Shown one piece after another: positions 32,671 through 48,549 of a stretch of DNA of 64,000 nt. The translations under genes and the position numbers were made by a program. This stretch comes from Polyangiales bacterium (GTDB taxonomy: Bacteria; Myxococcota_A; Polyangia; Polyangiales; Ga0077539): contig JBGARZ010000022.1 in the NCBI GenBank assembly GCA_044229975.1, positions 64,001-128,000 on the forward strand, given 5' to 3'. Positions within the stretch are counted from its first letter, which is position 1; every line of letters begins with the position of its first letter. Under the pieces are notes generated by a model that was not told the DNA's origin, ran no database searches, and was given only the letters and a program-made list of their open reading frames with translations.

Positions 32671-32800
32671 GAGGTCAGCGGGAGAAACCCGGGAGGTCAG
32701 CGGGAGAAACCCGGGAGGTCAGCGGGAGAAACCCGGGAGGTCAGCGGGAGAAACCTGGGAGGTCAGCGGGAGAAACCTGGGAGGCCAGCGGGTGGAACCC
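32671..32800. repeat. 22-bp tandem repeat, about 6 copies
   Basis: Unit GAGGTCAGCGGGAGAAACC(C/T)GG, five copies plus one degenerate copy, between convergent genes. Confidence 0.92.
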
Positions 32801-32852: not shown

Positions 32853-34508
32853 CTACGACGACGGCACCCCGTTGCGTAGCCAGTTGGCGCGCCCGGTCGG
32901 CCACTGCACGCAGTTGGTCGCCGAGCCCGGCACCGTGAACACCAGCGCCTCGTCGCCGTCGTCATCCTTCATGCTCACCACGATCTCCAGCGCCCCGTCG
33001 CCATCGACGTCGCCCACCGTCGGGACCGCCATCGCCCCGCGCCCCGGCAGCGCCACCCGCTGCTGCATCGCGCCGTCCGCGCCCAGCACCAGCAGCGCGT
33101 GTCCGCTCGATTGTGTTCCGTACGTCGCGAGGATCACCTCGGGCCGCCCGTCGCCCGACAGGTCGGCCACCGCCACGCCCGCGGTCAGCACCCGTGCATC
33201 CGTCGTGTACGCGTAGCTCCAGCGCTCGCGTCGATCGCTGCCCACGCAGTGCACCCGCCCGTCGTAGCCCGCAAACACCAGCTCGGGTCCCGCCGCGGCC
33301 GGGTCGAGCTCCGCCGCGCTCACCTGGTTGGTCAGCCCCACGATGTTGTCGCCCAGGTCTTCGAGGCCCGCGAGGTACGTCGGGACGTGCAGCGGCTCCT
33401 GCCAGGCCGCCGGGCGCGTCCCGTCCGCATGAATCGCCCACAGCGCCACGCCGCGCCGCCGGTCGTCCTGCGAGGCGTTCTGCACCGAGGCCACCATCAC
33501 GATCTCGGGGCGCCCGTCGCCGTCCACGTCCGCGAGCGTCGGTGGCGTGTTGGTGAAGTGCGCCTGGTTCGATGTCGACTCGCGCTCCGAGTAGCCCTGC
33601 CGGGCCTCGGCCATGTCGTGCAGAAACCTCACGCCGGGCGAGCGCGTCACCCGTGGAAACGTCGCCACCCGAAACGCCTCGCCCGACCCGCGGTGCCAGG
33701 ACACGTACGCGTTGTCCATCGGCGCGATCACGTCCATCGCGCGGTCGTCGTCGAGGTAGCCCACCGCGAGGGTCTGATCGAAGCCGCCCGTCACGTAGCA
33801 GACCTCGTCGCAGCCCGACGCACCGCTCGTGTTGGGCGGATACCCCGCCATCGTGCTGCCGTCGCCGTGCCACGCCATCAACAGGTCGCGCGCCGATCCG
33901 CTGCGCAGCGTTTCCGTCGACGCCGTCACGATCTCCGGTCGCCCGTCGCCGTCGAGGTCGCCGCCCGCGAGGCTCCGCAGCTCCTCGCGCCACCGCACCG
34001 GAAAGCCACCCGCCGCGCTCCCGCTCGCGCTGAACATCGCCACGCCGTCGCCCGCCGCTGCGACCACCTCCAGCGACGCGTCGCCCGCGAAGTCGCCGAC
34101 GAGTGGTGACGCCCACACCCGCGCGCGGCCGTTGACGGCGGCGGTCCAGCGAGTGGTTCCGTCGGCGGCCCACACGACGACACGGGGACCGCGCGCGGCG
34201 ACGATCTCCATGCGCCCGTCGCGGTCGAGGTCGACGATGGCGGGCGACCCCAGCCACCCTTCGCCGCCCATCGCTCGCAGCGCGCGCACCCGCGTGGGTG
34301 CCATCGCCGTCGCACGCCCCGCGGAGGCGGCTCGGCACGCCGGCATCACGGGCGTCGGCGCCGGACCATCGGGCACATGCGGGACGTCGACGACGGGCCG
34401 CGGGTTATCGAGCGGGATGATCGAGGCGTCGCCTGCTGTGTTGTTGACCGCGGGGTCACAGGCGGCGACGAGGGCGAGAGCGGCGATGAGCGACCGTGGG
34501 GCCATCAT
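32853..34508 (-). CDS. FG-GAP/VCBS repeat lipoprotein
   Basis: Lipobox VAAC; repeated DLDGDGRPEIV-type motifs. Confidence 0.85.
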   Translation of the reverse strand: MMAPRSLIAALALVAACDPAVNNTAGDASIIPLDNPRPVVDVPHVPDGPAPTPVMPACRAASAGRATAMAPTRVRALRAMGGEGWLGSPAIVDLDRDGRMEIVAARGPRVVVWAADGTTRWTAAVNGRARVWASPLVGDFAGDASLEVVAAAGDGVAMFSASGSAAGGFPVRWREELRSLAGGDLDGDGRPEIVTASTETLRSGSARDLLMAWHGDGSTMAGYPPNTSGASGCDEVCYVTGGFDQTLAVGYLDDDRAMDVIAPMDNAYVSWHRGSGEAFRVATFPRVTRSPGVRFLHDMAEARQGYSERESTSNQAHFTNTPPTLADVDGDGRPEIVMVASVQNASQDDRRRGVALWAIHADGTRPAAWQEPLHVPTYLAGLEDLGDNIVGLTNQVSAAELDPAAAGPELVFAGYDGRVHCVGSDRRERWSYAYTTDARVLTAGVAVADLSGDGRPEVILATYGTQSSGHALLVLGADGAMQQRVALPGRGAMAVPTVGDVDGDGALEIVVSMKDDDGDEALVFTVPGSATNCVQWPTGRANWLRNGVPSS

Positions 34509-34518
34509 CGCGAGGGTA

Positions 34519-35574
34519 TCAGGCCGCCTGCCGGACCATGGCCTCGACGGCGTCGAAGAGCGCACGCTGCGAGTGTTCCAGCGAGAAGATGTGGTTGGTC
34601 TCGGGCACCACCGCGAGCTCGACGCCGCGCGCCCGCCAGCGGGCCGGATCGCCCCGTAGCGACGCGTTGCCGAAGTAGCCCATGAAGGTCGGGTGGTACG
34701 ACGAGCTGTTGAGGAAGCTCACCTTCTGCCCGCGCTTGAGCACCTCCTGGAAGACCTCGTCGACGAGGTCGTTCTTCACTTCACCGGCCACCTGCATCTG
34801 CGCCGCGAGCGCCGCGTCGGGCTGCTCGGGCGGCGCCTCGGGCTCGACCGGCGGCAGCACGCCCCTGATCGTCTTCTCGATGGCCCCGCGCGCGAAGCCC
34901 GGAAGGATCGGCAGCACCCGGTCGACCTGCGCCCGCGTCTTGATGCGCGCGGCCTCCTTCAACAGCGAGTAGTCGCTCTCGCCGGAGAGCAGCCGTCGCC
35001 ACGCTTCGACGTCGGTGATCTTCTTCAGGTAGAGCTCGATCACCGTGTCGGTCTCGCCGGGGCGCGAGCGGAGGAGCTCGGCGGCGTTGTTCTCCAGGAA
35101 GCGCTGCCGCGCCGACGAGGAGATGGTGACGGGCAGGTCGACGATGACGTGGCCGAAGACGTTGGGCAGCGCCTTCGCCGCGAAGAGCCCGGTGATGCCG
35201 CCGCCGCACAGCCCGCCGAAGACCAGCGAGCGCACGCCCGTCTCCGCGGTGAGAAACTGCCCCGCCGCGACGGCGTCGCCGCTGAACCCGCCGCTCTGGA
35301 TGAAGCCGTAGAGGTCCATCACCATCTGGCCGTGGCGGGGCTCTCCCTCGGAGTCGCCGATGCCGTGGTAGTCGAAGCGCAGCGTCGGAACACCCGACGC
35401 GGCGAGGCGACGGGCGACAGCGACGTTCATCCGCCACGCGCCCTGACGCACCTTCTGACCCGCGGAAAACCACACCAGCCCGACGCCGCGCATCGACTGC
35501 GGGTCGTCCGGGAGGTGGAGGATTCCGTGCAGCGTGTGGCCCTTCTCGTTGGTGAACCGGACGGCTTTCTCCAT
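34519..35574 (-). CDS. Alpha/beta hydrolase-fold protein (exosortase-system hydrolase 1-like, Cys at nucleophile elbow)
   Basis: LHGILH, LRFDYHGIGDSEG, GLCGGG, NHIFS. Confidence 0.78.
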   Translation of the reverse strand: MEKAVRFTNEKGHTLHGILHLPDDPQSMRGVGLVWFSAGQKVRQGAWRMNVAVARRLAASGVPTLRFDYHGIGDSEGEPRHGQMVMDLYGFIQSGGFSGDAVAAGQFLTAETGVRSLVFGGLCGGGITGLFAAKALPNVFGHVIVDLPVTISSSARQRFLENNAAELLRSRPGETDTVIELYLKKITDVEAWRRLLSGESDYSLLKEAARIKTRAQVDRVLPILPGFARGAIEKTIRGVLPPVEPEAPPEQPDAALAAQMQVAGEVKNDLVDEVFQEVLKRGQKVSFLNSSSYHPTFMGYFGNASLRGDPARWRARGVELAVVPETNHIFSLEHSQRALFDAVEAMVRQAA

Positions 35575-35633
35575 GCGCCTCGACCGATGGTCCACGAACG
35601 ACCGTTACGCCGCAATGTATGAATACGACTACT

Positions 35634-37064
35634 TCACAGCGCGAGCGCGCGCCGGGCGAGGTCGCTCTTGAGCGTCGCGTCGGGGTCGAGCCGCTGCTTC
35701 AATGCCGCAAACTGGTCGAGTTTGTCGCGCCCATAGGCCCGCGCCACGTCGTCGGCGGTGATGACCGCGTCCTTGGCGAAGTAGAACTTCCCGCCCGCCT
35801 CAAGGACCATCGCGGTCATCTCGGCGAAGCACTTCCACAGGGCCTCGCGGTTGTCGCGCGTGACCTTGAAGTCCATCGCCATCGACCACCCGTCGAGCGC
35901 GTGGGTGAGCAGGAAGGCGTCGGGCCGGTGCCGCTTGAAGACGCTCAGGTATGACGGAAACCCGCGGCGGTGTCCGAGGGCGATGAGGGCCTTCATGGTG
36001 GCCCGCGCCGTCTCCTTCGGGATGAACACCTGGTACTGCACGAAGCCCCCGGGGCCGTACGCGAGCCGCCAGTTGGGCACGTAGTCGAGCAGGAAGGCGA
36101 AGGCCACGTGCGACTGCATGTACGAGGCGCCGTCCTGGAGGTACGACGACCAGTACTTGGCGAAGTTGACCATCCCGACGCCGAGGTCGTGCACGAAGTA
36201 GCGCATCACCTCCCAGAGGCGGCTCTTGGGGAAGCCCAGGATGGTGCCGGGCAACCCCTGCTTCTCGACGTGAAACGAGCTCGCCGGGTCGGGGTCTTCG
36301 CCCTCGTGGAGGTAGTACGCCGCGTGGATCTGCCCGCGACCGATGGAGTCGCCGCGCGCGAAGCTGTCGACCCAGCCGACGAGGTAGTCGGCCTTCGGGA
36401 TGAGCTCCTCGAAGCAGTCGAACATCGCGTCGAGGTTGCGCGCGACGTGCGCGTCGACCCGCATGAACCCGCTGTCGACCTTCTTCAGCTTGAGCTTCAC
36501 GCGCGTGATCGCACCGAGCATCCCGAGGCCGCCGATGGCGCCGTGGAAGACGTCGGAGTTGTGCTCGCGGTTGCAGGTGAGCAGGTCACCGCGCGAGGTG
36601 AGCAGGTCGATCTCCTGCACGTGGTCGCCGAAGGGGCCCGCGCGGAAGTTGTTCTTGCCGTGGATGTTCATGGCGAGGCAGCCGCCCAGCGTCGGACGCA
36701 TCGTGCCGGGCACCACCGCGGGCCAGTAGCCGTCCTCGATGGTGCGCCGCCACAGGCCCTCGACGGTGATGCCGGGCTCGCACTCGAAGATGCCGGTCGT
36801 CGGGTCCCACCGGTGAACACGGGTGAGCTTCTGCGTGTCGATGATGAGCCCACCGCCGTTGAGCGACGCGTCGCCGTAGCTGCGCCCCGCCCCGCGAAAC
36901 GCCACCGACATCCCCTCGTCGTGCGCCTTCGCGACCGTCGCCGCGAGCTCGTCGACGCTCTCCGGCGCCGCGTAGTGGCAGGCCGCGTTGACCGCGCGGC
37001 CGAAGCCGTCGAGCACCCGCCACGGGGCGCGCGCTTCGAGGGTGGTGAGCGTCGGCTTCTGCAT
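35634..37064 (-). CDS. FAD-binding oxidoreductase, DprE1-like
   Basis: RGAGRSYGDA, VPGT...TLGG, NIHGKN, GFVQYQ, GGKFYFAKD. Confidence 0.82.
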   Translation of the reverse strand: MQKPTLTTLEARAPWRVLDGFGRAVNAACHYAAPESVDELAATVAKAHDEGMSVAFRGAGRSYGDASLNGGGLIIDTQKLTRVHRWDPTTGIFECEPGITVEGLWRRTIEDGYWPAVVPGTMRPTLGGCLAMNIHGKNNFRAGPFGDHVQEIDLLTSRGDLLTCNREHNSDVFHGAIGGLGMLGAITRVKLKLKKVDSGFMRVDAHVARNLDAMFDCFEELIPKADYLVGWVDSFARGDSIGRGQIHAAYYLHEGEDPDPASSFHVEKQGLPGTILGFPKSRLWEVMRYFVHDLGVGMVNFAKYWSSYLQDGASYMQSHVAFAFLLDYVPNWRLAYGPGGFVQYQVFIPKETARATMKALIALGHRRGFPSYLSVFKRHRPDAFLLTHALDGWSMAMDFKVTRDNREALWKCFAEMTAMVLEAGGKFYFAKDAVITADDVARAYGRDKLDQFAALKQRLDPDATLKSDLARRALAL

Positions 37065-37801
37065 CAGACGTTGGTCCTCCGGAAGAGCCACGAGGGGATG
37101 GAGCGAACCACCCACGCCACAAGCGCCCAGCGCCCCGGGACGAATCCGCTCGCGCCGCTCCCCTTCTTCGCAAGCGCAAGGCAGCGGCGAGCGGCCTCTT
37201 CGGCGCTGATGATCCACAGGAGCTTGCCCATGCCCTTCGTCATCGCCGTCGCGACGAAGCCGGGCTTGGCCGTGACCACGTTGACCCCGTAGCGCGAGCA
37301 GCGGTTGCGCAGCGCTTCGAGGTACGCCGAGAGGGCCGCCTTCGACGTGGTGTAGCCGGGGTTGCCGCGACGACCGCGCTCGCCCGCGATGCTCGACACG
37401 CCGAGGATGGTTCCGCTGCGCGCGGCCTCGAAGCGGGCGGCGACGGGGTTCATCCACGCCATCGCGCCGACCACGTTGACGGCCATCATCTGGCGGTCTT
37501 TGTCGAAGCTGTACTCACCCTCGGCGACGGTGGGCATCACGCCCGCGGCGTACACGAGCAGGTCGAGGCCGCCGAGGTCGCCGACGATCTTCTCGTAGAG
37601 CGCGGGCACCTCGTCGAAGTTCTCCACGTCGTGCGCGTACGCCTTGAGCTTGTCGTTGCCCCCGCACACGCGCTCCAGCTCCGCGGCGCGTCGCGCCACC
37701 ACCGCCACCGTCGCCCCGTCGGCGGCGAGCTGCTTCGCCATCGCCTCGCCGATGCCCGACGACCCGCCGACGACGATCGCCTTCTTGAACACCACGCTCA
37801 C
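37064..37801 (-). CDS. SDR oxidoreductase, DprE2-like
   Basis: GGSSGIG, SSIAGERGR..N..YTTSKA, KPGFVATAMT; overlaps the DprE1-like start. Confidence 0.8.
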   Translation of the reverse strand: MSVVFKKAIVVGGSSGIGEAMAKQLAADGATVAVVARRAAELERVCGGNDKLKAYAHDVENFDEVPALYEKIVGDLGGLDLLVYAAGVMPTVAEGEYSFDKDRQMMAVNVVGAMAWMNPVAARFEAARSGTILGVSSIAGERGRRGNPGYTTSKAALSAYLEALRNRCSRYGVNVVTAKPGFVATAMTKGMGKLLWIISAEEAARRCLALAKKGSGASGFVPGRWALVAWVVRSIPSWLFRRTNV

Positions 37802-37913
37802 TGCCGGTCACTGCTCCAACCGCGGGACGCGACCGCTCGCGTCGTCGGCGGGGAGGGTGCCTACCACGACTCCGCGCGCGGCAACATCGGCCGCCGCGGT
37901 GAACGGTCGCGAA

Positions 37914-38756
37914 CTACGCCTGATCGAGCGCTTCGAGCCACCCGAGCAGCGCGAGCTCGACCTGCTCGGCGCGCGTGAGGTGCACCTTGCCCTCGACGTG
38001 CAACGGCTGCGGCTCGACCGCCCGGGCCAGGGTGGCGCCCGCGCCGAGCGTGGTGATGAGCGCGGCCAGCTCGTTGCTCGCGCGGGCCGTCGGCGTCTTC
38101 ACCACGTCGATGACCAGCGAGCGCGCGGGGTAGTGGGCGAGCACCGTCGACAGGTCGATGGCGCGGATGTCGTCGAACTGCGCGGCCGTGAGGTGGTAGC
38201 CGAAGACGTTGACGGTCTCGCCCGCGCGCAGCCGCTCGATGAGCACCTCGCGGGTCACGCCGGCCTTCTTGGTGAGCACCATCTCGCCCGCGAGGTAGGC
38301 GCGCAGGACGTCCATCGCGTAGGTGGATCCCTTCACCACGGGCTGGAGCAGCGCGAGCGGCGCCGGGCCCTCGGTCGCGCCCACCATCGCGGCGAGCGTC
38401 GCGCCGAAGCGCAGCCCGCACAGGACCACCCGCTCGACGCCCGACTGCGCCCGCGCGAAGGCGCAGGCCGCACGCACATCGCCCAGCCACGAGGCGACGG
38501 TGGCGTCTTCCCACTCGCCCTCGCTGTCGCCGCAGCCGTGAAGGTCGAAGCGCATCGCCCACAACCCGCGCCCCGCCACCCGCGTGGCGAGCGAGCGGAG
38601 GAAGGGGTGCGCGTCCTGGCGCTCTTCCATGAAGGGGTGGACGAAGACCACCGCCGCGGGGGCGATGGCGAGCGGCGCATCGGTGGCGCGCGGCTCGTGC
38701 AGAAAACCGTAGAGGCGGTGTGACCCCGAGGAGAAGAACTCGCCGCGGTCGCCCAC
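37914..38756 (-). CDS. Alpha/beta hydrolase-fold protein (exosortase-system hydrolase 2-like, no catalytic Ser)
   Basis: HPFMEE, RFDLHGCGDSEG, GLRFGA, LLQPV..G. Confidence 0.8.
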   Translation of the reverse strand: MGDRGEFFSSGSHRLYGFLHEPRATDAPLAIAPAAVVFVHPFMEERQDAHPFLRSLATRVAGRGLWAMRFDLHGCGDSEGEWEDATVASWLGDVRAACAFARAQSGVERVVLCGLRFGATLAAMVGATEGPAPLALLQPVVKGSTYAMDVLRAYLAGEMVLTKKAGVTREVLIERLRAGETVNVFGYHLTAAQFDDIRAIDLSTVLAHYPARSLVIDVVKTPTARASNELAALITTLGAGATLARAVEPQPLHVEGKVHLTRAEQVELALLGWLEALDQA

Positions 38757-38760
38757 CCGA

Positions 38761-39018
38761 TCAGCCCGCGGACTGCTTGCGCCCGATGTAGTCCGCGATG
38801 CGGCTCACGGCGTCGAAGTTTTCGGGGAGCATCTCCGAGTCGAGCACCTCGATGCTGAACTCGTCGCGCAGCCACTCGAAGACTTCGAGCAGGCCGGTGG
38901 AGTCGACGATGCCGAGCTCCATCAACGACGCGTCGTTGGTCACCGCGCCGGGGTCGGCCACGGGGAAGTTCGACAACACGTAAGCCCGCACCTTACCGAC
39001 CAATTCCTCTGACGCCAT
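38761..39018 (-). CDS. Acyl carrier protein
   Basis: SL.ELGIVDSTG phosphopantetheine site, PENFD; acidic, 85 aa. Confidence 0.9.
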   Translation of the reverse strand: MASEELVGKVRAYVLSNFPVADPGAVTNDASLMELGIVDSTGLLEVFEWLRDEFSIEVLDSEMLPENFDAVSRIADYIGRKQSAG

Positions 39019-39145
39019 CGACCGTATCCCTCTCGCTGACGAGCCGAGATGGGTTGATATCAGAAGCACCGGGCGGAGGTCACGAAGGTTTCGAGACAAC
39101 GTCGCGGTTGCGCGCCGCGCTGACGCCGCGGCGTGGGCCGGGCTG

Positions 39146-40720
39146 TCAAGCGAGGCCCTTCTTCACGATCTTGCCCATGGCGGTCTTCGGGAGCGCGTCC
39201 CTGAACTCCACGTGCTTGGGCACCATGTACGCCTCCAGCACCTGACCCAGCTTCAGGGCGATGTCGCGCTCGGTGTACTTCCCCTTGTGCTCGTCCGAGA
39301 GCACCACGAAGGCCTTCACTGCCGATCCGAGGATGTCATCGGACACGCCGATGACGGCGCACTCGCGCACGCCTTCGATGCGCTCCAGGGCCGCTTCGAC
39401 CTCGCGCGGCGCGACCTTCTCTCCGCGCGTCTTGATGACCTCGTCCATCCTCGCGATGAAGTGCAGGTAGCCCTCCTCGTCGAGCCGACAGTGGTCGCCG
39501 GTGTGGAAGAGCACCTCGGTCGGAAACGGCCCCGGCCGCAGGTACTTCGCCGTCGCCTCGGGCTTGCGCCAGTAGCCCGCCATGATGTGCGAGCCGCGCA
39601 CCACGAGCTCCCCTTCGGCCGAGCGGTCGTGTCGCACGCCGTCGCCGTCGATGACCCAGAACTCCGTCCCCGGGATGGGGATGCCCACCGAGCCGGGCTT
39701 GCGGTGCAGGTCGGCGGGCGGCAGCCACGAGACGCGCTTGCACTCGGTGAGGCCGTACATCGAGTAGACCTTCGCCTTCGGAAACCACCGCGCGATGGCG
39801 TCGAGGTGCTTGGGGAGCAGCGCCGCCGCCGTGCTCGACACGTAGCGAACGTGCTCCATCGGCTGCACCGGGACGTCCTTGAGCTCACCCAACAACGCGA
39901 ACATCGTGGGGACGCCCGCGAAGCCGGTGACCTTCGTCTCGGCGCAGCGCTGGAGGATGGCGACGGGGAAGGTAAACGAGCGCTCCAGCACCAGGGTGGC
40001 GCCGAGCCGCACCGTCATCAGCCACTGGTAGAGCCCGTAGTTGAAGGCCATCGGGACGACGCCGAGGATGACGTCGTCGGCGGTGTTCTCCAGCAGGGTC
40101 GTCACGCTCCACGAGGCGAAGGCGACGTTACGGTGGGTGAGCATCGCGCCCTTGGGCTCGCCGGTGCTCCCCGAGGTGTAGATGATGGCCGCGAGGTCGA
40201 CGTCGAGGGAGCGACGCGGCGGCGCCTCTTCGGGCTGCGTGGCCACGAGGTCGGCGAGGGACTCCACGCCCGCGACGCTGGCCTTGGCGGCGAGGTCGAG
40301 GGCGCGCGGGGTCTGCGGGCCGTGCACGAGCACCGGAGGCTTCGTCGTCGAGCGCTGACACGCATCGGACCACGCGGTGACGAGCGCGGCGTCGGCGATG
40401 ACGGCGGCCACGGCGGCGTCGTCGATCATGTAGGCGAGCTTCTCGGCCTTCACCTGCGCGTTGACGACGAAGAACGCCGCGTCGGCCTTGAGGACGCCGA
40501 AGATGGAGGCCGCGACCTCGGGGCTGTTGTCACCGAAGATGAGCACCCGGTCGCCGCGCTTCACACCGCGTGAGCGGAGAGCGTGGGCGATGCGGTTGGC
40601 CCAGGTGTCGAGGGTCGCGTAGTTGAGCGCGACCTTGCCGGTGAGGAGGGCGGTCTTGGCGGGCGTTCGGGCCGCCGAGGCTTCGAGAAATTCTGCGACT
40701 CCGCGGGCACCCAACACCAT
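39146..40720 (-). CDS. AMP-dependent acyl/aminoacyl ligase
   Basis: YTSGSTGEPKG, MYGLTE, TGD, LPKT..GK. Confidence 0.92.
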   Translation of the reverse strand: MVLGARGVAEFLEASAARTPAKTALLTGKVALNYATLDTWANRIAHALRSRGVKRGDRVLIFGDNSPEVAASIFGVLKADAAFFVVNAQVKAEKLAYMIDDAAVAAVIADAALVTAWSDACQRSTTKPPVLVHGPQTPRALDLAAKASVAGVESLADLVATQPEEAPPRRSLDVDLAAIIYTSGSTGEPKGAMLTHRNVAFASWSVTTLLENTADDVILGVVPMAFNYGLYQWLMTVRLGATLVLERSFTFPVAILQRCAETKVTGFAGVPTMFALLGELKDVPVQPMEHVRYVSSTAAALLPKHLDAIARWFPKAKVYSMYGLTECKRVSWLPPADLHRKPGSVGIPIPGTEFWVIDGDGVRHDRSAEGELVVRGSHIMAGYWRKPEATAKYLRPGPFPTEVLFHTGDHCRLDEEGYLHFIARMDEVIKTRGEKVAPREVEAALERIEGVRECAVIGVSDDILGSAVKAFVVLSDEHKGKYTERDIALKLGQVLEAYMVPKHVEFRDALPKTAMGKIVKKGLA

Positions 40721-40743
40721 TGGTCGATGGTCCTCTCTGGGGA

Positions 40744-41730
40744 CTACTTCACGATCTCGGGGATCGGGTCGATGAGCAGCCCCGTCAAGTGGAGCGGGAG
40801 CGTGGCGCGGCGCTTGGCGTCGATGTCCTTGTAGACGCGCTCGGCCTGCTCGACGGAGATGTTGAGCACCGGGGCGACCTCGGAGGTGGGCACGCCGTGG
40901 TTCTTCGCCCACAGGCAGAGGTCCATCTCCTGGTAGGGGAGCGCGTAGTAGAACTCGTCCTGACCCTGCGGCAGCGAGAAGGTGTCGGTGGTGGGCGAGC
41001 GGCTGCAGATCTCCTGCGGCACGCCGAGGGCCTCGGCCATCGCGTACACCTGGGTCTTGTAGAGGTGCGCGATGGGCTTCACGTCGGCGAGCCCGTCGCC
41101 GCCCTTCACGAAGAACCCCTGGTCGTACTCCAGCCGGTTGGGCGTACCGACGACCGCGTAGTTGAGCCGGTCGGCGTGGAAGTACTCCAGCGTGGTGCGG
41201 AGGCGCTGCTTGAAGTTGGTGGCCGCGACGAGCAGCAGGTAGGCCGAGAGCGGCAGGGGCTTGGACTCCTGGGTGCCGTCGGGGCGCTCGACGGTGACGC
41301 GCGAGATGTTGAGCCGCTCGCCTTCGAGGATGGAGGGGATGACGATCTTGGACTTCCAGCCTTCGCCGTACTCGGGGAACACGGTGCGGATGGCGTCGTC
41401 CTGGCGCTTGTAGCAGCCGAGGGCTTCAAGGGCGGGGGCGAGGTCTTCGGTGGTGGTCTGGATGCCGAACTTCGCGGCGAGCAGCTTGCCGAAGCTGAGC
41501 GACTCGCTGGAGGAGACGCGCTCGGGGAGGAAGATGCCGTGCACCTTGTCGGGCCCGAAGGCGCGCACCGCGAGGGCGGTGCAGAGCGCCGAGTCGATGC
41601 CGCCGGAGATGCCTACGACGAGGCCCTTGCGGCGGTGGTTGACGGTGACCAGCTCGCGCATCTTCTTGGCGATGCGGTCGGCCTCGGCGGTCATGTCGGC
41701 GATGTGGAGAACGTCCCTGGAGAAGCTCAT
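40744..41730 (-). CDS. nadE: NAD+ synthase-like ATP pyrophosphatase (NH3-dependent type)
   Basis: GISGGIDS, NFKQRLR, GTPNRLE, FFVKGGDG.ADVKPIAHLYKTQVY. Confidence 0.82.
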   Translation of the reverse strand: MSFSRDVLHIADMTAEADRIAKKMRELVTVNHRRKGLVVGISGGIDSALCTALAVRAFGPDKVHGIFLPERVSSSESLSFGKLLAAKFGIQTTTEDLAPALEALGCYKRQDDAIRTVFPEYGEGWKSKIVIPSILEGERLNISRVTVERPDGTQESKPLPLSAYLLLVAATNFKQRLRTTLEYFHADRLNYAVVGTPNRLEYDQGFFVKGGDGLADVKPIAHLYKTQVYAMAEALGVPQEICSRSPTTDTFSLPQGQDEFYYALPYQEMDLCLWAKNHGVPTSEVAPVLNISVEQAERVYKDIDAKRRATLPLHLTGLLIDPIPEIVK

Positions 41731-44221: not shown

Positions 44222-46681
44222 CTACCGCACCGCTTCCAGCCACACCGGGTTCGTAAACGCGAAGGGCACTCCGTTGGAGTGCGGCAGCACCTGCTCCAGG
44301 TTGCCCTGCGGCCCGCGCGCCGTCGCCAGCACGAAGTCTCCCGGCGACACCCTCATCGGAACCGTCGCGTCGAAGCGCACGCGCCCGCTCCCGAGCGGCA
44401 CCGCGAGGCGCTCGGCCACCTCGCCGTTGCGCAGCAGCTCCACCGCGTCGACGCGCATCCACGGCGGCGCCATCACCACCACGCGCACCTGGACGGTCGT
44501 CGGCGCGGCGAGGGGCAGCGGGTCACCCGGCTCGTGCCCGTCGACGGTGAGCAACACCATCGGACCCGACGTCCCGAAGGCCCTCCCGCGACGCAGCGCG
44601 CGCAGGATGGCGGCCTGGTCGTCGGGCGCCTCTCCGGGGAAGAGGTGCACCATGGTGCGGGGGTAGCCGGCCCACTGATACGCGATCGTGTGCGAGTCGC
44701 TCGACGCGGTGCCGAGGTAGCGCCGACCGCGCTGGAGCAGCGAGGTCCAGTCGTGGAGCACGCGCTCCACCTCGCCGATCTGGCCGATGTAGAAGCCGTT
44801 GAAGACCTCGATGGCGTCGTAGTTGGGGTCGTACGCGGGCGACACCGCGCGGCCCGTGCGCACGTCGAGGCCGGTGACGTTGAAGTACCCGATGTTGGGC
44901 TGCATCCGGGGGTGGTTGACCTGGATGATCCCGTCGGGCGAGCGCTGCCGCGCGGCGGCGAAGATCTCCCGCGGGAGGATGTTGACGTACGGCGGCGGAC
45001 CACCCTCGGGCGATCCCTCGCGCGCGGGATACGGGTACACGTTGAAGTGCCCCCAGGGCTGCGCGCTGCGGTCGGTGGTGACCTCCACCGCGGGCACCCA
45101 GTGGAGCGGCGCCGCGACGTTGGGGGGCAGCAGCGCGACGCCTTCGCGGTAGTCGCCGACGACGTTGTGTTCGGTGGGGGTCGCGAAGCCGACGCCCTCG
45201 GCCACGAGCGAGGCGACGCGGTCGGCGATGGAGACGTGCGAGTCGAAGCTCGGGTTGGCGTGCACGTGCAGGTCACACGCGACCCAGCCGTCCATGGGGA
45301 CGGCGTGCGAGAGGCCCACGTCGAGCTCGCCGCGCAGGGTCTCGGTGACGGTGACGTCGCGGGTCGCGAGGGTCCACTCGGGGCCGTGCGAGACGGTCAC
45401 GCGGTACGAGCCCGGGGCCAGCGGAAACACCGCCTGCCCGCTCGCGGCGACGACGACCACACCGGCGCCGAGGGCGTGGTGCGTGGGGCCGAGCATCGGG
45501 TCGGGCGTCGGCGCGATGCCGCGCACGGTGATGCGAACGGGCAGCGCGCTCTCGGGGTGGTCGTCGTCGTGGGCGGTCACGCGCAGCGACGCGCCAGGCG
45601 GCAGCGACACCTCGATGGGCACGGCGCCGGTGGTCTCGGGGCGCACCTCGAAGGCCACCGGGTCGCCGACGGCGGAGCCCGGCGCGGTGACCCACGCGAC
45701 GTAACGACCCGGCGTGAGCGGGAGCGTCGCGCGCTCGTTGGTGGGCGCCGACACGAGCACGGCCTGACCCTCCGGGGTGGTGATGGTGACCGTCGCCGGG
45801 TTGCGCTGCGCGCCGCGCACGACGACCGAGACGTCCGTGACGGGGCGACCGCGGGCGAGCATCACGGCGCGCTGGAGATCACCGAGCTGACCGGGGAGCT
45901 CGATGAGCATCTCGTGGTCGGTGACGGCCCCGGCGGGGCGGAGGTCGGTCGCGGGGTGCAGCACCTCGGTCGCGCCGCGCGAGGCGGTGTGCTCGTGCAT
46001 CTCGCTGGTGAAGCGCAGGTCGAGGTCGGCGTCGCCCGCGCGCGTCCACGCGACGGCGAGGTTGTGCTCGGAGGCGCCGACCCAGGGGGAGGTTCCTTCG
46101 TGGGACTTGGTGTGGACGCCGAGGGCCGGGGCGAAGGGTGCTTCATCGCCCCACGCGAGGCGCGCCCCGAAGCGGACGCCGCGTACGAGGTGGTCGCCAG
46201 CGTTGACGATGCGCGTGCGGACGTGGAGCGCGCGGCGGCCGGGCTCCATGGCGTAGTCGCGGGTGAGCGTGAGGGTGTCGTCGTGGTAGCGGTAGCGCGC
46301 GGTGAGGCGGAGCGTGGGCGTGGCGTCGAGGAGGACGGCTTCGAGGCGGGTGCTCGACGCGTCGAGCTCGTGGTCGCCGATGGCGACGAAGAAGTCGACG
46401 GCGCGCAGCGGGTCGAGCGCGGGCGCGGCGCGGTCGGTGACGCGCAGGATGCTGCCGGGGCGCCCCGATCGCACCTGGCGCGAGTCGCCGACGAGCAGCA
46501 CCTGGAGCTCGGGCGTGCGGAGAAACCAGTCGCCCGCGATGAGGTCGCGCACGGGGGCAGGGTGGTCGCGGTCGACGCGGCGCAGCTCGACGGAGCCCAC
46601 GACGAGGCTGGTGCGGAGCGACGGGCGGCAGGTGCTGAGGACGAGCGCGAGGGGGAGGAGCGGAAGGAGGCGGCGGGTCAT
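44222..46681 (-). CDS. Exported PHP-like (CehA/McbA-type) metallohydrolase
   Basis: DLHVH, TEHN, GHFN, QVNHPR, IEVFNG and SSDSH motifs; signal peptide. Confidence 0.82.
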   Translation of the reverse strand: MTRRLLPLLPLALVLSTCRPSLRTSLVVGSVELRRVDRDHPAPVRDLIAGDWFLRTPELQVLLVGDSRQVRSGRPGSILRVTDRAAPALDPLRAVDFFVAIGDHELDASSTRLEAVLLDATPTLRLTARYRYHDDTLTLTRDYAMEPGRRALHVRTRIVNAGDHLVRGVRFGARLAWGDEAPFAPALGVHTKSHEGTSPWVGASEHNLAVAWTRAGDADLDLRFTSEMHEHTASRGATEVLHPATDLRPAGAVTDHEMLIELPGQLGDLQRAVMLARGRPVTDVSVVVRGAQRNPATVTITTPEGQAVLVSAPTNERATLPLTPGRYVAWVTAPGSAVGDPVAFEVRPETTGAVPIEVSLPPGASLRVTAHDDDHPESALPVRITVRGIAPTPDPMLGPTHHALGAGVVVVAASGQAVFPLAPGSYRVTVSHGPEWTLATRDVTVTETLRGELDVGLSHAVPMDGWVACDLHVHANPSFDSHVSIADRVASLVAEGVGFATPTEHNVVGDYREGVALLPPNVAAPLHWVPAVEVTTDRSAQPWGHFNVYPYPAREGSPEGGPPPYVNILPREIFAAARQRSPDGIIQVNHPRMQPNIGYFNVTGLDVRTGRAVSPAYDPNYDAIEVFNGFYIGQIGEVERVLHDWTSLLQRGRRYLGTASSDSHTIAYQWAGYPRTMVHLFPGEAPDDQAAILRALRRGRAFGTSGPMVLLTVDGHEPGDPLPLAAPTTVQVRVVVMAPPWMRVDAVELLRNGEVAERLAVPLGSGRVRFDATVPMRVSPGDFVLATARGPQGNLEQVLPHSNGVPFAFTNPVWLEAVR

Positions 46682-48549
46682 TCGGGCAGGCGTGTCCAGT
46701 GGAGGGAGTCGGCGTTGAGGCGCGAGCCGTCGACGCGGCGGGCGCCGAAGTAGAGGCCATGGGCGCGCACCTCGGCGGGCGTGGCGGGGAGGTCGACCTC
46801 GGTGCGGGTGACCTCGCCAGGGCGCACGAAGGCGGCCATGAGAACGCCATCGTAGGGGAGGAAGGCGTAGGTGCTGGCGGGGTCCTGCCGGTCGCCGTTG
46901 GGATGGAGCGGGCCCCATCCGAGCTCGAAGCCGAGGTCGTAGGGCCACGGCTCGTTGGCCACGAGGAGCAGCGTCACGTGGCTGCCGCGCGGGGCGGCGG
47001 TGACGCCGTAGCCCGCGATGGTGAGCGAGTGGCCGACGTCGACGTGGGCGGCGTGCACGCGCGGGTCGGTGTCGAACTCCACGTAGCGGCCGCGGGCGTA
47101 GGTGCGGACGGGCCAGTGCTCGCGGAGGACGATGTAGTCGCCGACGACGTTCCAGACGCCGTAGCGGCGCCAGAAGAGCGCGTTGCGGACCGTGACCTCC
47201 TCGGAGTTGCGGAAGAGTTCCTGCGTGCCGGTGTGGAGGTTGCGGTGCTCGGTGGAGATGACGACGTACTCGGCGGCGCGCTCGGGCGGCTGCTTGAAGC
47301 GGAAGATGCGCGTGCGCTCGGCGAAGTGGGACAGCGTGAAGTCGGGCCCGCTGTACGACGCATCGGCGGGGATGAGCGATGCGATGGTGTCGAGCGCCGG
47401 CTGCCGGCTGTCGGCGCGGTGGTCGCGCAGGTGGAAGCGGCGACCGATGACGGGGAAGACGCCCGCGCGGTGTTGCATGTGGAGCGTTCCGGCGGAGACG
47501 GCGGCGAGGACGAGGAGGCCGTAGCGCTCGGGCTGGAGGGCGCCGACGGCCATGATCCAGGCGGCGCCGTGGATGGCGGCGACGATGACGAAGGGCACCG
47601 CGAGGGTGCTGTAGTGCGAGTGGATCTGCACCGCAGTGGGAAACTGCGACAGCAGGTTGATGCCGATGGGCGCGAGCGCGGGGATGAACCATCGCGGGCG
47701 CAGCAGCGGCAGCAGCGCGACGGGCGCGAGCAGGCGCGGGACGTAGAGCAGGCGCACGGGCGTAGCGAGCTCACGGAGGGTGGCGATGGGGTGCGTGAGG
47801 AGCTGCGCGAGGATGGAGGCGGGGGACGATCCGAGGTGGCCGAAGTGGAGCTGGAGCGAGCCGGTGCGCGGGAGGTAGCGGGGCGCGACGACGAAGAGGT
47901 AGACGCAGAACCACGCGGTGAACGCGACGAAGGCCGCGAGCCCGATGGGGCGGTGCTTGCGGTGGGTGGCGAGGGCGAGGCCGGTGAGGGCGGCGCAGAG
48001 GGCGACGTCCTCGCGGCAGAGGGTGGCGACGAAGAGGGCGACGACCCCGGCGACGGCGCGGCGCTGATCGAAGAAGTCGAGCGCGATGCACAGCGGGAGC
48101 AGCGCGAGCGAGCTGGGGTGGAACTCGTAGCTGGCGATGGAGCCGACGGTGGGGAAGAGGAGATAGACGAGGAGCGCGACGTAGGGGGCCGCGGGGTGGC
48201 CGATGCGGCGCGAGGCGATGCGGGCGAGGGGGATGCCCGCGGCGGCGACGGCGGCGGCCTGCACGACGAGGAGCAGCGGGACGACGGAGGCGAGGCGCCC
48301 GAGGAGACCGAGCGGGATGAGGATGATGGAGAGGTGCAGGCCCCACAGGGGCGCGCCGACGAGGGGGTTGTAGAGGTCGCCGTGCCCCGCGCCCCAGACG
48401 ATCCGCGTATAGAACGCGAGGTCGAAGGTGTCGTTGTGCCAGGTGCGGAAGCGCGTGAGGGCCATCGCGCCGAACAGCACGGCGGCTGCGAGGCTGAGGT
48501 TGGAGATGGCGCGCCAGGGGAAGCGCTCGTCGGCCCGGGGGTCGTTCAA
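46678..48549 (-). CDS. DUF2079 multi-pass membrane protein (putative GT-C glycosyltransferase)
   Basis: TFDLAFY, H.S, YEFHP, CRED and HYS motifs with many TMs. Confidence 0.8.
   Translation of the reverse strand: MNDPRADERFPWRAISNLSLAAAVLFGAMALTRFRTWHNDTFDLAFYTRIVWGAGHGDLYNPLVGAPLWGLHLSIILIPLGLLGRLASVVPLLLVVQAAAVAAAGIPLARIASRRIGHPAAPYVALLVYLLFPTVGSIASYEFHPSSLALLPLCIALDFFDQRRAVAGVVALFVATLCREDVALCAALTGLALATHRKHRPIGLAAFVAFTAWFCVYLFVVAPRYLPRTGSLQLHFGHLGSSPASILAQLLTHPIATLRELATPVRLLYVPRLLAPVALLPLLRPRWFIPALAPIGINLLSQFPTAVQIHSHYSTLAVPFVIVAAIHGAAWIMAVGALQPERYGLLVLAAVSAGTLHMQHRAGVFPVIGRRFHLRDHRADSRQPALDTIASLIPADASYSGPDFTLSHFAERTRIFRFKQPPERAAEYVVISTEHRNLHTGTQELFRNSEEVTVRNALFWRRYGVWNVVGDYIVLREHWPVRTYARGRYVEFDTDPRVHAAHVDVGHSLTIAGYGVTAAPRGSHVTLLLVANEPWPYDLGFELGWGPLHPNGDRQDPASTYAFLPYDGVLMAAFVRPGEVTRTEVDLPATPAEVRAHGLYFGARRVDGSRLNADSLHWTRLPE

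Follow-up and report, generated by a model that had tools for sequence, protein, structure and literature searches.

In this study we describe a locus of eight co-oriented genes in a 64,000-nucleotide (nt) stretch of DNA from a Polyangiales bacterium (hereafter the window), and we find that five of them form a conserved core: a NadE-like protein, an adenylation ligase, an acyl carrier protein (ACP) and two proteins of alpha/beta-hydrolase fold, here called hyd1 and hyd2. From the sequence comparisons below we lean, if only by a little, towards a reading in which this core would load a C4 dicarboxylic acid on the ACP, amidate it and transfer it to an exopolysaccharide, with the DprE2/DprE1-like pair and the FG-GAP lipoprotein gene of the same locus standing apart from it. 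An initial annotation of this DNA had listed the same eight genes and joined them in a single envelope pathway. The eight minus-strand open reading frames (ORFs) at 32853-41730 agree with that list in order, coordinates and Pfam/NCBIfam labels, and are separated, from the NadE-like gene down to the FG-GAP gene, by 23, 127, 4, 112, -1, 59 and 10 nt. The eight genes do lie together, yet very probably they do not make up a single pathway.

The genome searched comprises 10 Mb and is 93% complete. Family labels are from Pfam and NCBIfam scans, and paired figures give the bit score against the curated cut-off. Only the NadE-like protein passes the cut-off of its NCBIfam subfamily; the ligase, hyd1, hyd2, the short-chain dehydrogenase/reductase (SDR) and the oxidase score below theirs.

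Table 1. Genes of the locus, with positions in the window and the matches on which their labels are based (bits, or bits/cut-off)
Gene product	Position	Strand	Place in locus	Evidence
NadE-like ATP pyrophosphatase, PRK00876 subfamily (S. meliloti NadE1 type)	40744-41730	-	core	NF002048 483 bits
Stand-alone adenylation ligase, VinN-like	39146-40720	-	core	TIGR03098 408/592; VinN best PDB match
Acyl carrier protein (GIVDST)	38761-39018	-	core	PF00550 above cut-off
hyd2, alpha/beta-hydrolase fold with GLRFG, Arg at elbow, TIGR03101-like	37914-38756	-	core	TIGR03101 116/203
DprE2-like SDR	37064-37801	-	first gene of inserted two-gene cassette	NF053786 107/250; PRK07102 below cut-off
DprE1-like FAD oxidase	35634-37064	-	second gene of inserted cassette	NF053785 298/500
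hyd1, alpha/beta-hydrolase fold with GLCGG, Cys nucleophile, TIGR03100-like	34519-35574	-	core	TIGR03100 82/168
FG-GAP repeat lipoprotein, lipobox-like LVAAC	32853-34508	-	local passenger	sequence and neighbourhood survey

The conservation of the core was followed in a sample of 30 genomes of the family, where the ligase and hyd1 occur in the identical 23 genomes and are absent from the identical 7. It should be noted that these genomes are kin and not independent, so that this and the other co-distribution counts are descriptive and overstate the association. Of the 23 hyd1 loci 20 were fetched, the other three lying on short contigs; ACP, hyd2 and hyd1 were found together in all 20, the ligase in 15 and the NadE-like gene in 12, and the remaining loci either run into contig ends or are split into a nadE-ligase part and an ACP-hyd2-hyd1 part. 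Five genomes of genus g2 have a glutamine-dependent nadE upstream of ACP-hyd2-hyd1, which we considered as a replacement for the NadE-like gene and rejected, as the nadE-like gene and the ligase are kept elsewhere in these genomes; we take it to be a rearrangement.

The closest described gene set is the Sinorhizobium meliloti pSymB operon asnB-ACP (SMb20651)-ligase (SMb20650)-nadE1, which holds the same four families (identities to the proteins of our genome: NadE-like 56%, ligase 50%, ACP 37%, AsnB 47%). Its NadE1 passes NF002048 as the NadE-like protein of the window does. In contrast to the rhizobial operon, our genome has asnB on another contig beside a GT4 glycosyltransferase gene (C34:139253-142418), the hydrolase pair in the operon, and an Asn where the rhizobial ligase has an Asp. 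The C34 AsnB is 47-55% identical to the AsnBs of such cassettes, compared with 31-39% for the other AsnB paralogs of the genome, and a dead synthetase or glutaminase domain was rejected, since the N-terminal Cys and SGGxDS are intact. AsnB of this type is present in 22 of the 23 genomes that carry the module and in none of the 7 that do not, and at 22 of the 23 loci its neighbour is the same GT4; a single family genome (G129) has asnB adjacent to other cassette genes, and in the window genome it is unlinked. The GT4 itself is TIGR03088-like (218/409), and its match to BshA (112/274) was generic and was not counted in favour of malate. The unlinked AsnB-GT4 pair is a better partner of the core than the dprE pair.

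Further we surveyed 28 more distant nadE-like loci, 27 of the same phylum and one of Azospirillum. The loci contain asnB (21), ACP (21) and the ligase (20), with neither dprE1 nor hyd at any of them; in place of hyd they carry, among the 109 of 295 neighbouring genes that were scanned because they lie closest to the cassette, hexapeptide-repeat acyltransferases (12), AT3 acyltransferases (5) and GNAT-like proteins. On plasmids of Shinella and Roseateles a fused hyd2-hyd1 lies among glycosyltransferases adjoining the cassette, in Shinella together with a flippase. Because cassette loci elsewhere carry other acyltransferases or the fused hyd2-hyd1, the transfer step looks interchangeable, the hydrolase pair filling it here. 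Wzx, Wzy, sugar-transferase or exosortase genes are found near several of the distant loci, and in some family members parts of the core lie beside Wza, Wzx and GT4 genes. The earlier suggestions that the ligase, ACP and hydrolases are a set with a polysaccharide context, and that the NadE-like protein belongs with them, are borne out: the surroundings of the wider module are rich in genes for polysaccharides, and the NadE-like subfamily travels with ligase, ACP and AsnB. We also observed a protein family of 250-330 amino acids (aa), unannotated and lacking a Pfam match, adjoining the nadE-like cassette in seven loci.

The specificity region of the ligase has VinN (3WV4) as its best PDB match (E 4.6e-34). 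With an alignment offset constant at 16 residues, VinN M323, K330 and R331 correspond to M321, K328 and R329 of the ligase, S299 to Thr297, and Asp230 to Asn227. According to the available text of PMC7756342 and PMC9484153, the VinN-type residues contact the alpha-carboxyl (second carboxylate) and the amino group of methylaspartate, Asp230 binding the amine. The pocket for the second carboxylate (basic pair, M321 and T297) is retained in our ligase, and the amine-binding Asp is not. An Asn at the equivalent pocket position suits a hydroxyl in aryl-acid adenylation domains. As the second-carboxylate pocket is kept but the amine-binding Asp is Asn, we infer a substrate that would be a C4 diacid lacking a free amine, most simply malate. 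Among the family genomes 23 of 24 have Asn227, as do all 41 closest homologs, and the next 79 homologs comprise 71 with Asp, 4 with Asn and 4 that could not be parsed. The S. meliloti ortholog is described, in the available part of PMC7232532, as co-transcribed with the ACP, as yielding acylated ACP in E. coli and as unable to substitute for FadD.

The NadE-like protein scores 483 bits against a cut-off of 313 on NF002048/PRK00876. In an alignment of 54 sequences of this subfamily SGGxDS is invariant (54/54), T160, E165 and K189 are kept, and an insertion of 45-65 residues is present. Residues N136, R140, K173, D180, K261, T172, H260 and Y33 we take to be the positions of E. coli NadE that contact nicotinic acid adenine dinucleotide (NaAD). 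At these positions T172 has become Val in all 54 sequences, H260 is Ala in 39 of 54 with His outside the four commonest residues, and Y33 is replaced. Judged from these residues the protein is intact as an ATP pyrophosphatase but has an altered distal pocket. One could argue that it is a spare ammonia-dependent NAD synthetase which rides with the cassette, the other genes loading and transferring an unmodified acid; the ATP site and most of the presumed NaAD-site residues are invariant and the NCBIfam family bears the name NAD(+) synthase. We regard this as quite improbable, given the insertion, the replaced T172 and H260, the four other NadE-family genes of the genome, and the position of the NadE-like gene, which at most loci has the ACP, the ligase or asnB as a neighbour; further, the matches listed for the seven family genomes without the module do not include its split pattern.

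A separate nadE, which the initial annotation proposed to look for, is present. The PF02540 search of the genome gave five loci including the window gene. Three of the others encode proteins of 526-670 aa with an N-terminus of glutaminase length and PRK13981 as best match (326-458 bits, cut-off 479), and the fifth is an ammonia-type fusion. The NAD supply is independent of the NadE-like gene of the window. The presence of three glutamine-type NadE genes (C19:264744, C20:422922 and C29:52999) is in itself unusual for one genome. As read from the sequence, the ammonia-type NadE on C20 (L001 5034-8311) has a C-terminal domain resembling a 2-oxoglutarate/Fe oxygenase, and after it comes the gene of a NadD-like protein with HxGH. 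The available portion of PMC3376133 contains no mention of the PRK00876 subfamily that we could find.

The ACP adjoins hyd2 in 20 of 20 relatives' loci. In hyd1, whose alpha/beta-hydrolase fold the structure model confirms (predicted template-modelling score 0.68, Foldseek E about 1e-10), C123, D146 and H328 are invariant in 12 of 12 aligned orthologs; the earlier description of a hydrolase fold with Cys at its elbow holds, with Cys123 and His328 both invariant. The elbow of hyd2, G114-x-R116-x-G118, is likewise invariant in 12 of 12 with no matching invariant His. We predict that hyd1 is an acyltransferase and hyd2 its catalytically dead partner. The predicted hyd1-hyd2 complex scored 0.89, the best control scoring 0.00, against a mark that 116 of 157 solved pairs and 2 of 215 mismatched pairs reach; the prediction used custom 12-row alignments, and other bacteria have hyd1 and hyd2 as halves of a single fused gene, which makes a pass by likeness probable. 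The runs shared at least 79% of contacts with a partner pLDDT of at least 88, and the predicted interface takes in hyd1 residues 40-48 and 325-333, beside His328. Hence we suggest from the model that the two proteins may form a heterodimer.

A different product is conceivable for the same genes, namely a lipid or small acylated metabolite such as an amino-acid lipid or a signal, with hyd1 acting as a thioesterase or lipid acyltransferase. The best NCBIfam match of the ACP is the ornithine-lipid ACP model NF052616, although at 41/130 bits it is far under the cut-off; thioesterases and RhlA are among the generic Foldseek matches of hyd1; and the cassettes of S. meliloti and Nitratireductor have no polysaccharide genes within 10-12 kb. 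Against this, polysaccharide genes recur near the cassette in unrelated lineages, AsnB is tied to the GT4 gene, and the related Bcam1334 is placed in an exopolysaccharide cluster by the available text of PMC3584217, and we consider such a product unlikely.

In seven genus genomes, both with and without the dprE pair, there is a conserved non-coding motif around TACATTGCGG before hyd1 (window 35575-35633). The motif could be a promoter within the operon or the site of a regulator; a sigma-70 scan did not detect it.

The remaining genes have another history. The DprE1-like oxidase has mycobacterial DprE1 as best PDB match (E 2e-61), and the pair shows the HGKN, QYQ, VFK and FAKD motifs, with GGSSGIG and YTTSK in the SDR. 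The NCBIfam equivalog cut-offs, which belong to actinobacterial models, are missed by both (Table 1) and also by the other dprE1 clade of the family (341/500). The initial annotation tied these genes, as source of arabinose, to the ACP module, and this link did not hold up. Of the 20 relatives' loci 2 have the pair placed between hyd2 and hyd1, and these 2 belong to the genus of the window genome (counting that genome too, 3 of 9 in the genus carry it there); the pair is at none of the 28 distant nadE-like loci or the 14 loci of Asn-type ligases. Among the 80 closest dprE1 loci in the genome collection, many of them short of a full flank, an SDR was found at 75, UbiA at 4 and the ACP module at 2.

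Each of the 20 family genomes with a dprE1 match has exactly one, and the gene of the window is the only dprE1 found in its genome. Three of the 20 have the clade of the window, and 17 a distant clade (30-32% identity) elsewhere in the genome, in 16 of the 17 beside its own SDR. At E 1e-30 there was no dprE1 match in nine of the genomes that carry the module, and six of these nine have a completeness of 90% or more; of the 7 module-less genomes 5 have a dprE1. The hyd2-hyd1 spacing could be parsed in 17 of the 20 loci, G102 not among them. Outside the genus it is 2-18 nt (9 loci parsed), and genus genomes that lack the pair have spacers of 84-157 nt which align to the dprE1 end of the window and the spacer following it, above 300 shuffles each. 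Three of six pair-less genus genomes retain a SELARR remnant, in two of them with a stop in register with the SDLARRALAL-stop of the window. In the tree two carriers of the pair take basal positions in the genus, and the third is nested with weak support. From the dprE1-end scars and the placement of the carriers we conclude that the pair was inserted in the genus ancestor and deleted later. The pair of the window replaced the usual dprE pair of the family and was deleted again in most members, and it is likely a passenger unrelated to and independent of the core.

That all eight genes are one pathway, which puts an ACP-derived group on an arabinosylated glycan or lipoprotein with DprE1/DprE2 supplying the arabinose, is to our judgement very unlikely. 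In its favour the pair is co-oriented inside the operon in three genus genomes, the earliest-branching one included, and is the sole dprE1 found in each; a UbiA resembling DPPR synthase is present in the genome; and six genus g2 genomes have hyd1 followed by a PMT_2 gene, so that polyprenyl-sugar genes reached the side of hyd1 twice. On the other hand we have the rarity of the pair in the module in all four surveys, the module-bearing genomes with no dprE1 match and the module-less ones with a dprE1, the deletion scar that shows loss from the site, and the absence of an adjacent FG-GAP gene from all 20 relatives' loci. The UbiA, a phosphoribosyltransferase type whose presence the initial annotation proposed to look for, is encoded on contig C27 (C27:24805-25698, NF008978 201/207), and its like is found in 29 of 30 family genomes with or without the module. 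A target glycan shared by the core and the dprE pair is possible.

Seven of eight genus g2 genomes have no dprE1 match but retain the UbiA that resembles DPPR synthase; in this genus the donor may be a polyprenyl-phosphoribose. A DUF2079 membrane protein (window 46678-48549, minus strand), syntenic in several genus members, could be a GT-C-type enzyme that draws on a polyprenyl-phosphosugar, for instance the product of the DprE pair. An orphan PRK07102-type SDR on C20 (L003 7650-8390) has no FAD oxidase as neighbour, and was rejected as partner of the other dprE1 clade of the family, since it is 30% identical to the SDR of that clade.

The FG-GAP lipoprotein had also been counted as a pathway member, which its absence from the module in the relatives does not bear out. 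The gene has a 68% paralog on contig C35, and 25 of the 30 family genomes have it, among them 4 without the module; it is likely an independent local passenger. Downstream of it, at window 32700-32790, a short tandem repeat of ~21 nt can be seen by eye.

Returning to the exopolysaccharide reading, we propose the following order of events. The VinN-like ligase would adenylate the beta-carboxyl of malate, or of an aspartate derivative, and load the acid on the ACP. The NadE-like protein and the unlinked AsnB, whose active-site sets are intact, would both use ATP to activate a carboxylate and turn it into an amide; in the simplest case the acid on the ACP would be the substrate of one of them, and a uronic acid in the glycan that of the other. 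The hyd1-hyd2 heterodimer would then move the acyl group from the ACP via Cys123 to a sugar, probably of a lipid-linked repeat unit in the cytoplasm. The dprE pair would likely supply polyprenyl-phospho-arabinose together with the UbiA on C27. Further, we speculate that malamoyl-ACP is made, from malate loaded by its beta-carboxyl and amidated by a repurposed NAD synthetase, and that it is passed to a surface glycan by the Cys-active/Arg-dead hydrolase heterodimer; so specific a scheme is possible but doubtful.

Several points weigh against the exopolysaccharide reading, beginning with the non-independence of the kin genomes noted above. The operon in the window has no polysaccharide gene itself. 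N136, R140, K173, D180 and K261, which we assume to be NaAD contacts, are kept in the NadE-like family. Asn227 also occurs in 4 of the 79 ligases at greater distance and in 14 ligases from metagenomes, and hyd genes accompany 1 of these 14 (drawn from 80 fetched of at least 120 matches, many on short contigs), so Asn227 does not mark the hydrolase-pair variant alone; a link between Asn-type ligase and hydrolase pair outside the family was not found in this sample. The dprE pair has persisted in the module in three lineages, its DprE1 having diverged to 74-77% identity; this and the PMT_2 gene of genus g2, of GT-C type, speak against the pair being a mere passenger. Finally, the available part of PMC7232532 names no dicarboxylate for the acylated ACP of the S. 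meliloti ortholog.

Among known systems, the exosortase-A set TIGR03098/03100/03101 and Burkholderia cenocepacia Bcam1334 likewise have a ligase, an ACP and hydrolase folds with Cys and Arg elbows, in a polysaccharide-locus context according to the available text of PMC3584217. Unlike that set, the proteins of the window are below the cut-offs (408/592, 82/168 and 116/203) and tailoring would be by the NadE-like protein and AsnB, not by a pyridoxal-phosphate (PLP) decarboxylase. The decarboxylase that accompanies the exosortase-A-associated set is presumably TIGR03099. No exosortase was seen at the window locus, and no genome-wide search for one was made. The beta-aspartyl-ACP ligases VinN/VinL (vicenistatin) and BolO/BolC (bolagladin) give the best PDB pocket match with M323, K330 and R331 kept and S299 as Thr; they differ from our system in having Asp230 for Asn227, and the window has no polyketide or non-ribosomal peptide synthase nearby and downstream enzymes that would amidate rather than decarboxylate. 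The DprE1/DprE2 of mycobacteria and of Pseudomonas aeruginosa Pa5196 (pilin arabinosylation) are likewise paired FAD oxidase and SDR with the same motifs and a UbiA in the genome, whereas the window has the order dprE2-dprE1, no adjacent UbiA, GtrA or arabinosyltransferase, and scores below the NCBIfam cut-offs. DprE pairs are known in Gram-negative bacteria, as stated in the available text of bioRxiv 10.1101/2020.04.19.049825.

A promoter and terminator scan of the locus gave nothing above chance. In two public expression runs 5-6% of words matched, and the contigs derived from relatives at ~90% identity, so no transcript of this locus was shown; one such contig covers the ACP, the ligase and the nadE end and does not address the dprE junctions.

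In the literature we reached, searches found no paper on the chemistry of the cassette and at most a single table row, and no chemistry is assigned there to TIGR03100/03101-type hydrolases. The core is an uncharacterised set, in which the VinN-like Asn227 ligase and the predicted hyd1-hyd2 heterodimer are new here. We regard the grouping of all eight genes as an accident of this locus and not as an arabinose pathway to pursue, but the five-gene core is worth study. The dprE history offers a neat, small-scale example of gene displacement in which the deletion has left a legible scar. As loader, carrier, amidating enzyme and candidate transferase are soluble proteins of one operon, testing in vitro is feasible. 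In several phyla, annotations call PRK00876 proteins NAD synthases, probably wrongly. If the malamoyl scheme were true, it would give a first non-NAD function to this widespread NadE subfamily, a switch of one residue, Asp or Asn, that decides whether aspartate or malate is the decoration, and a new class of ACP-dependent glycan acyltransferase.

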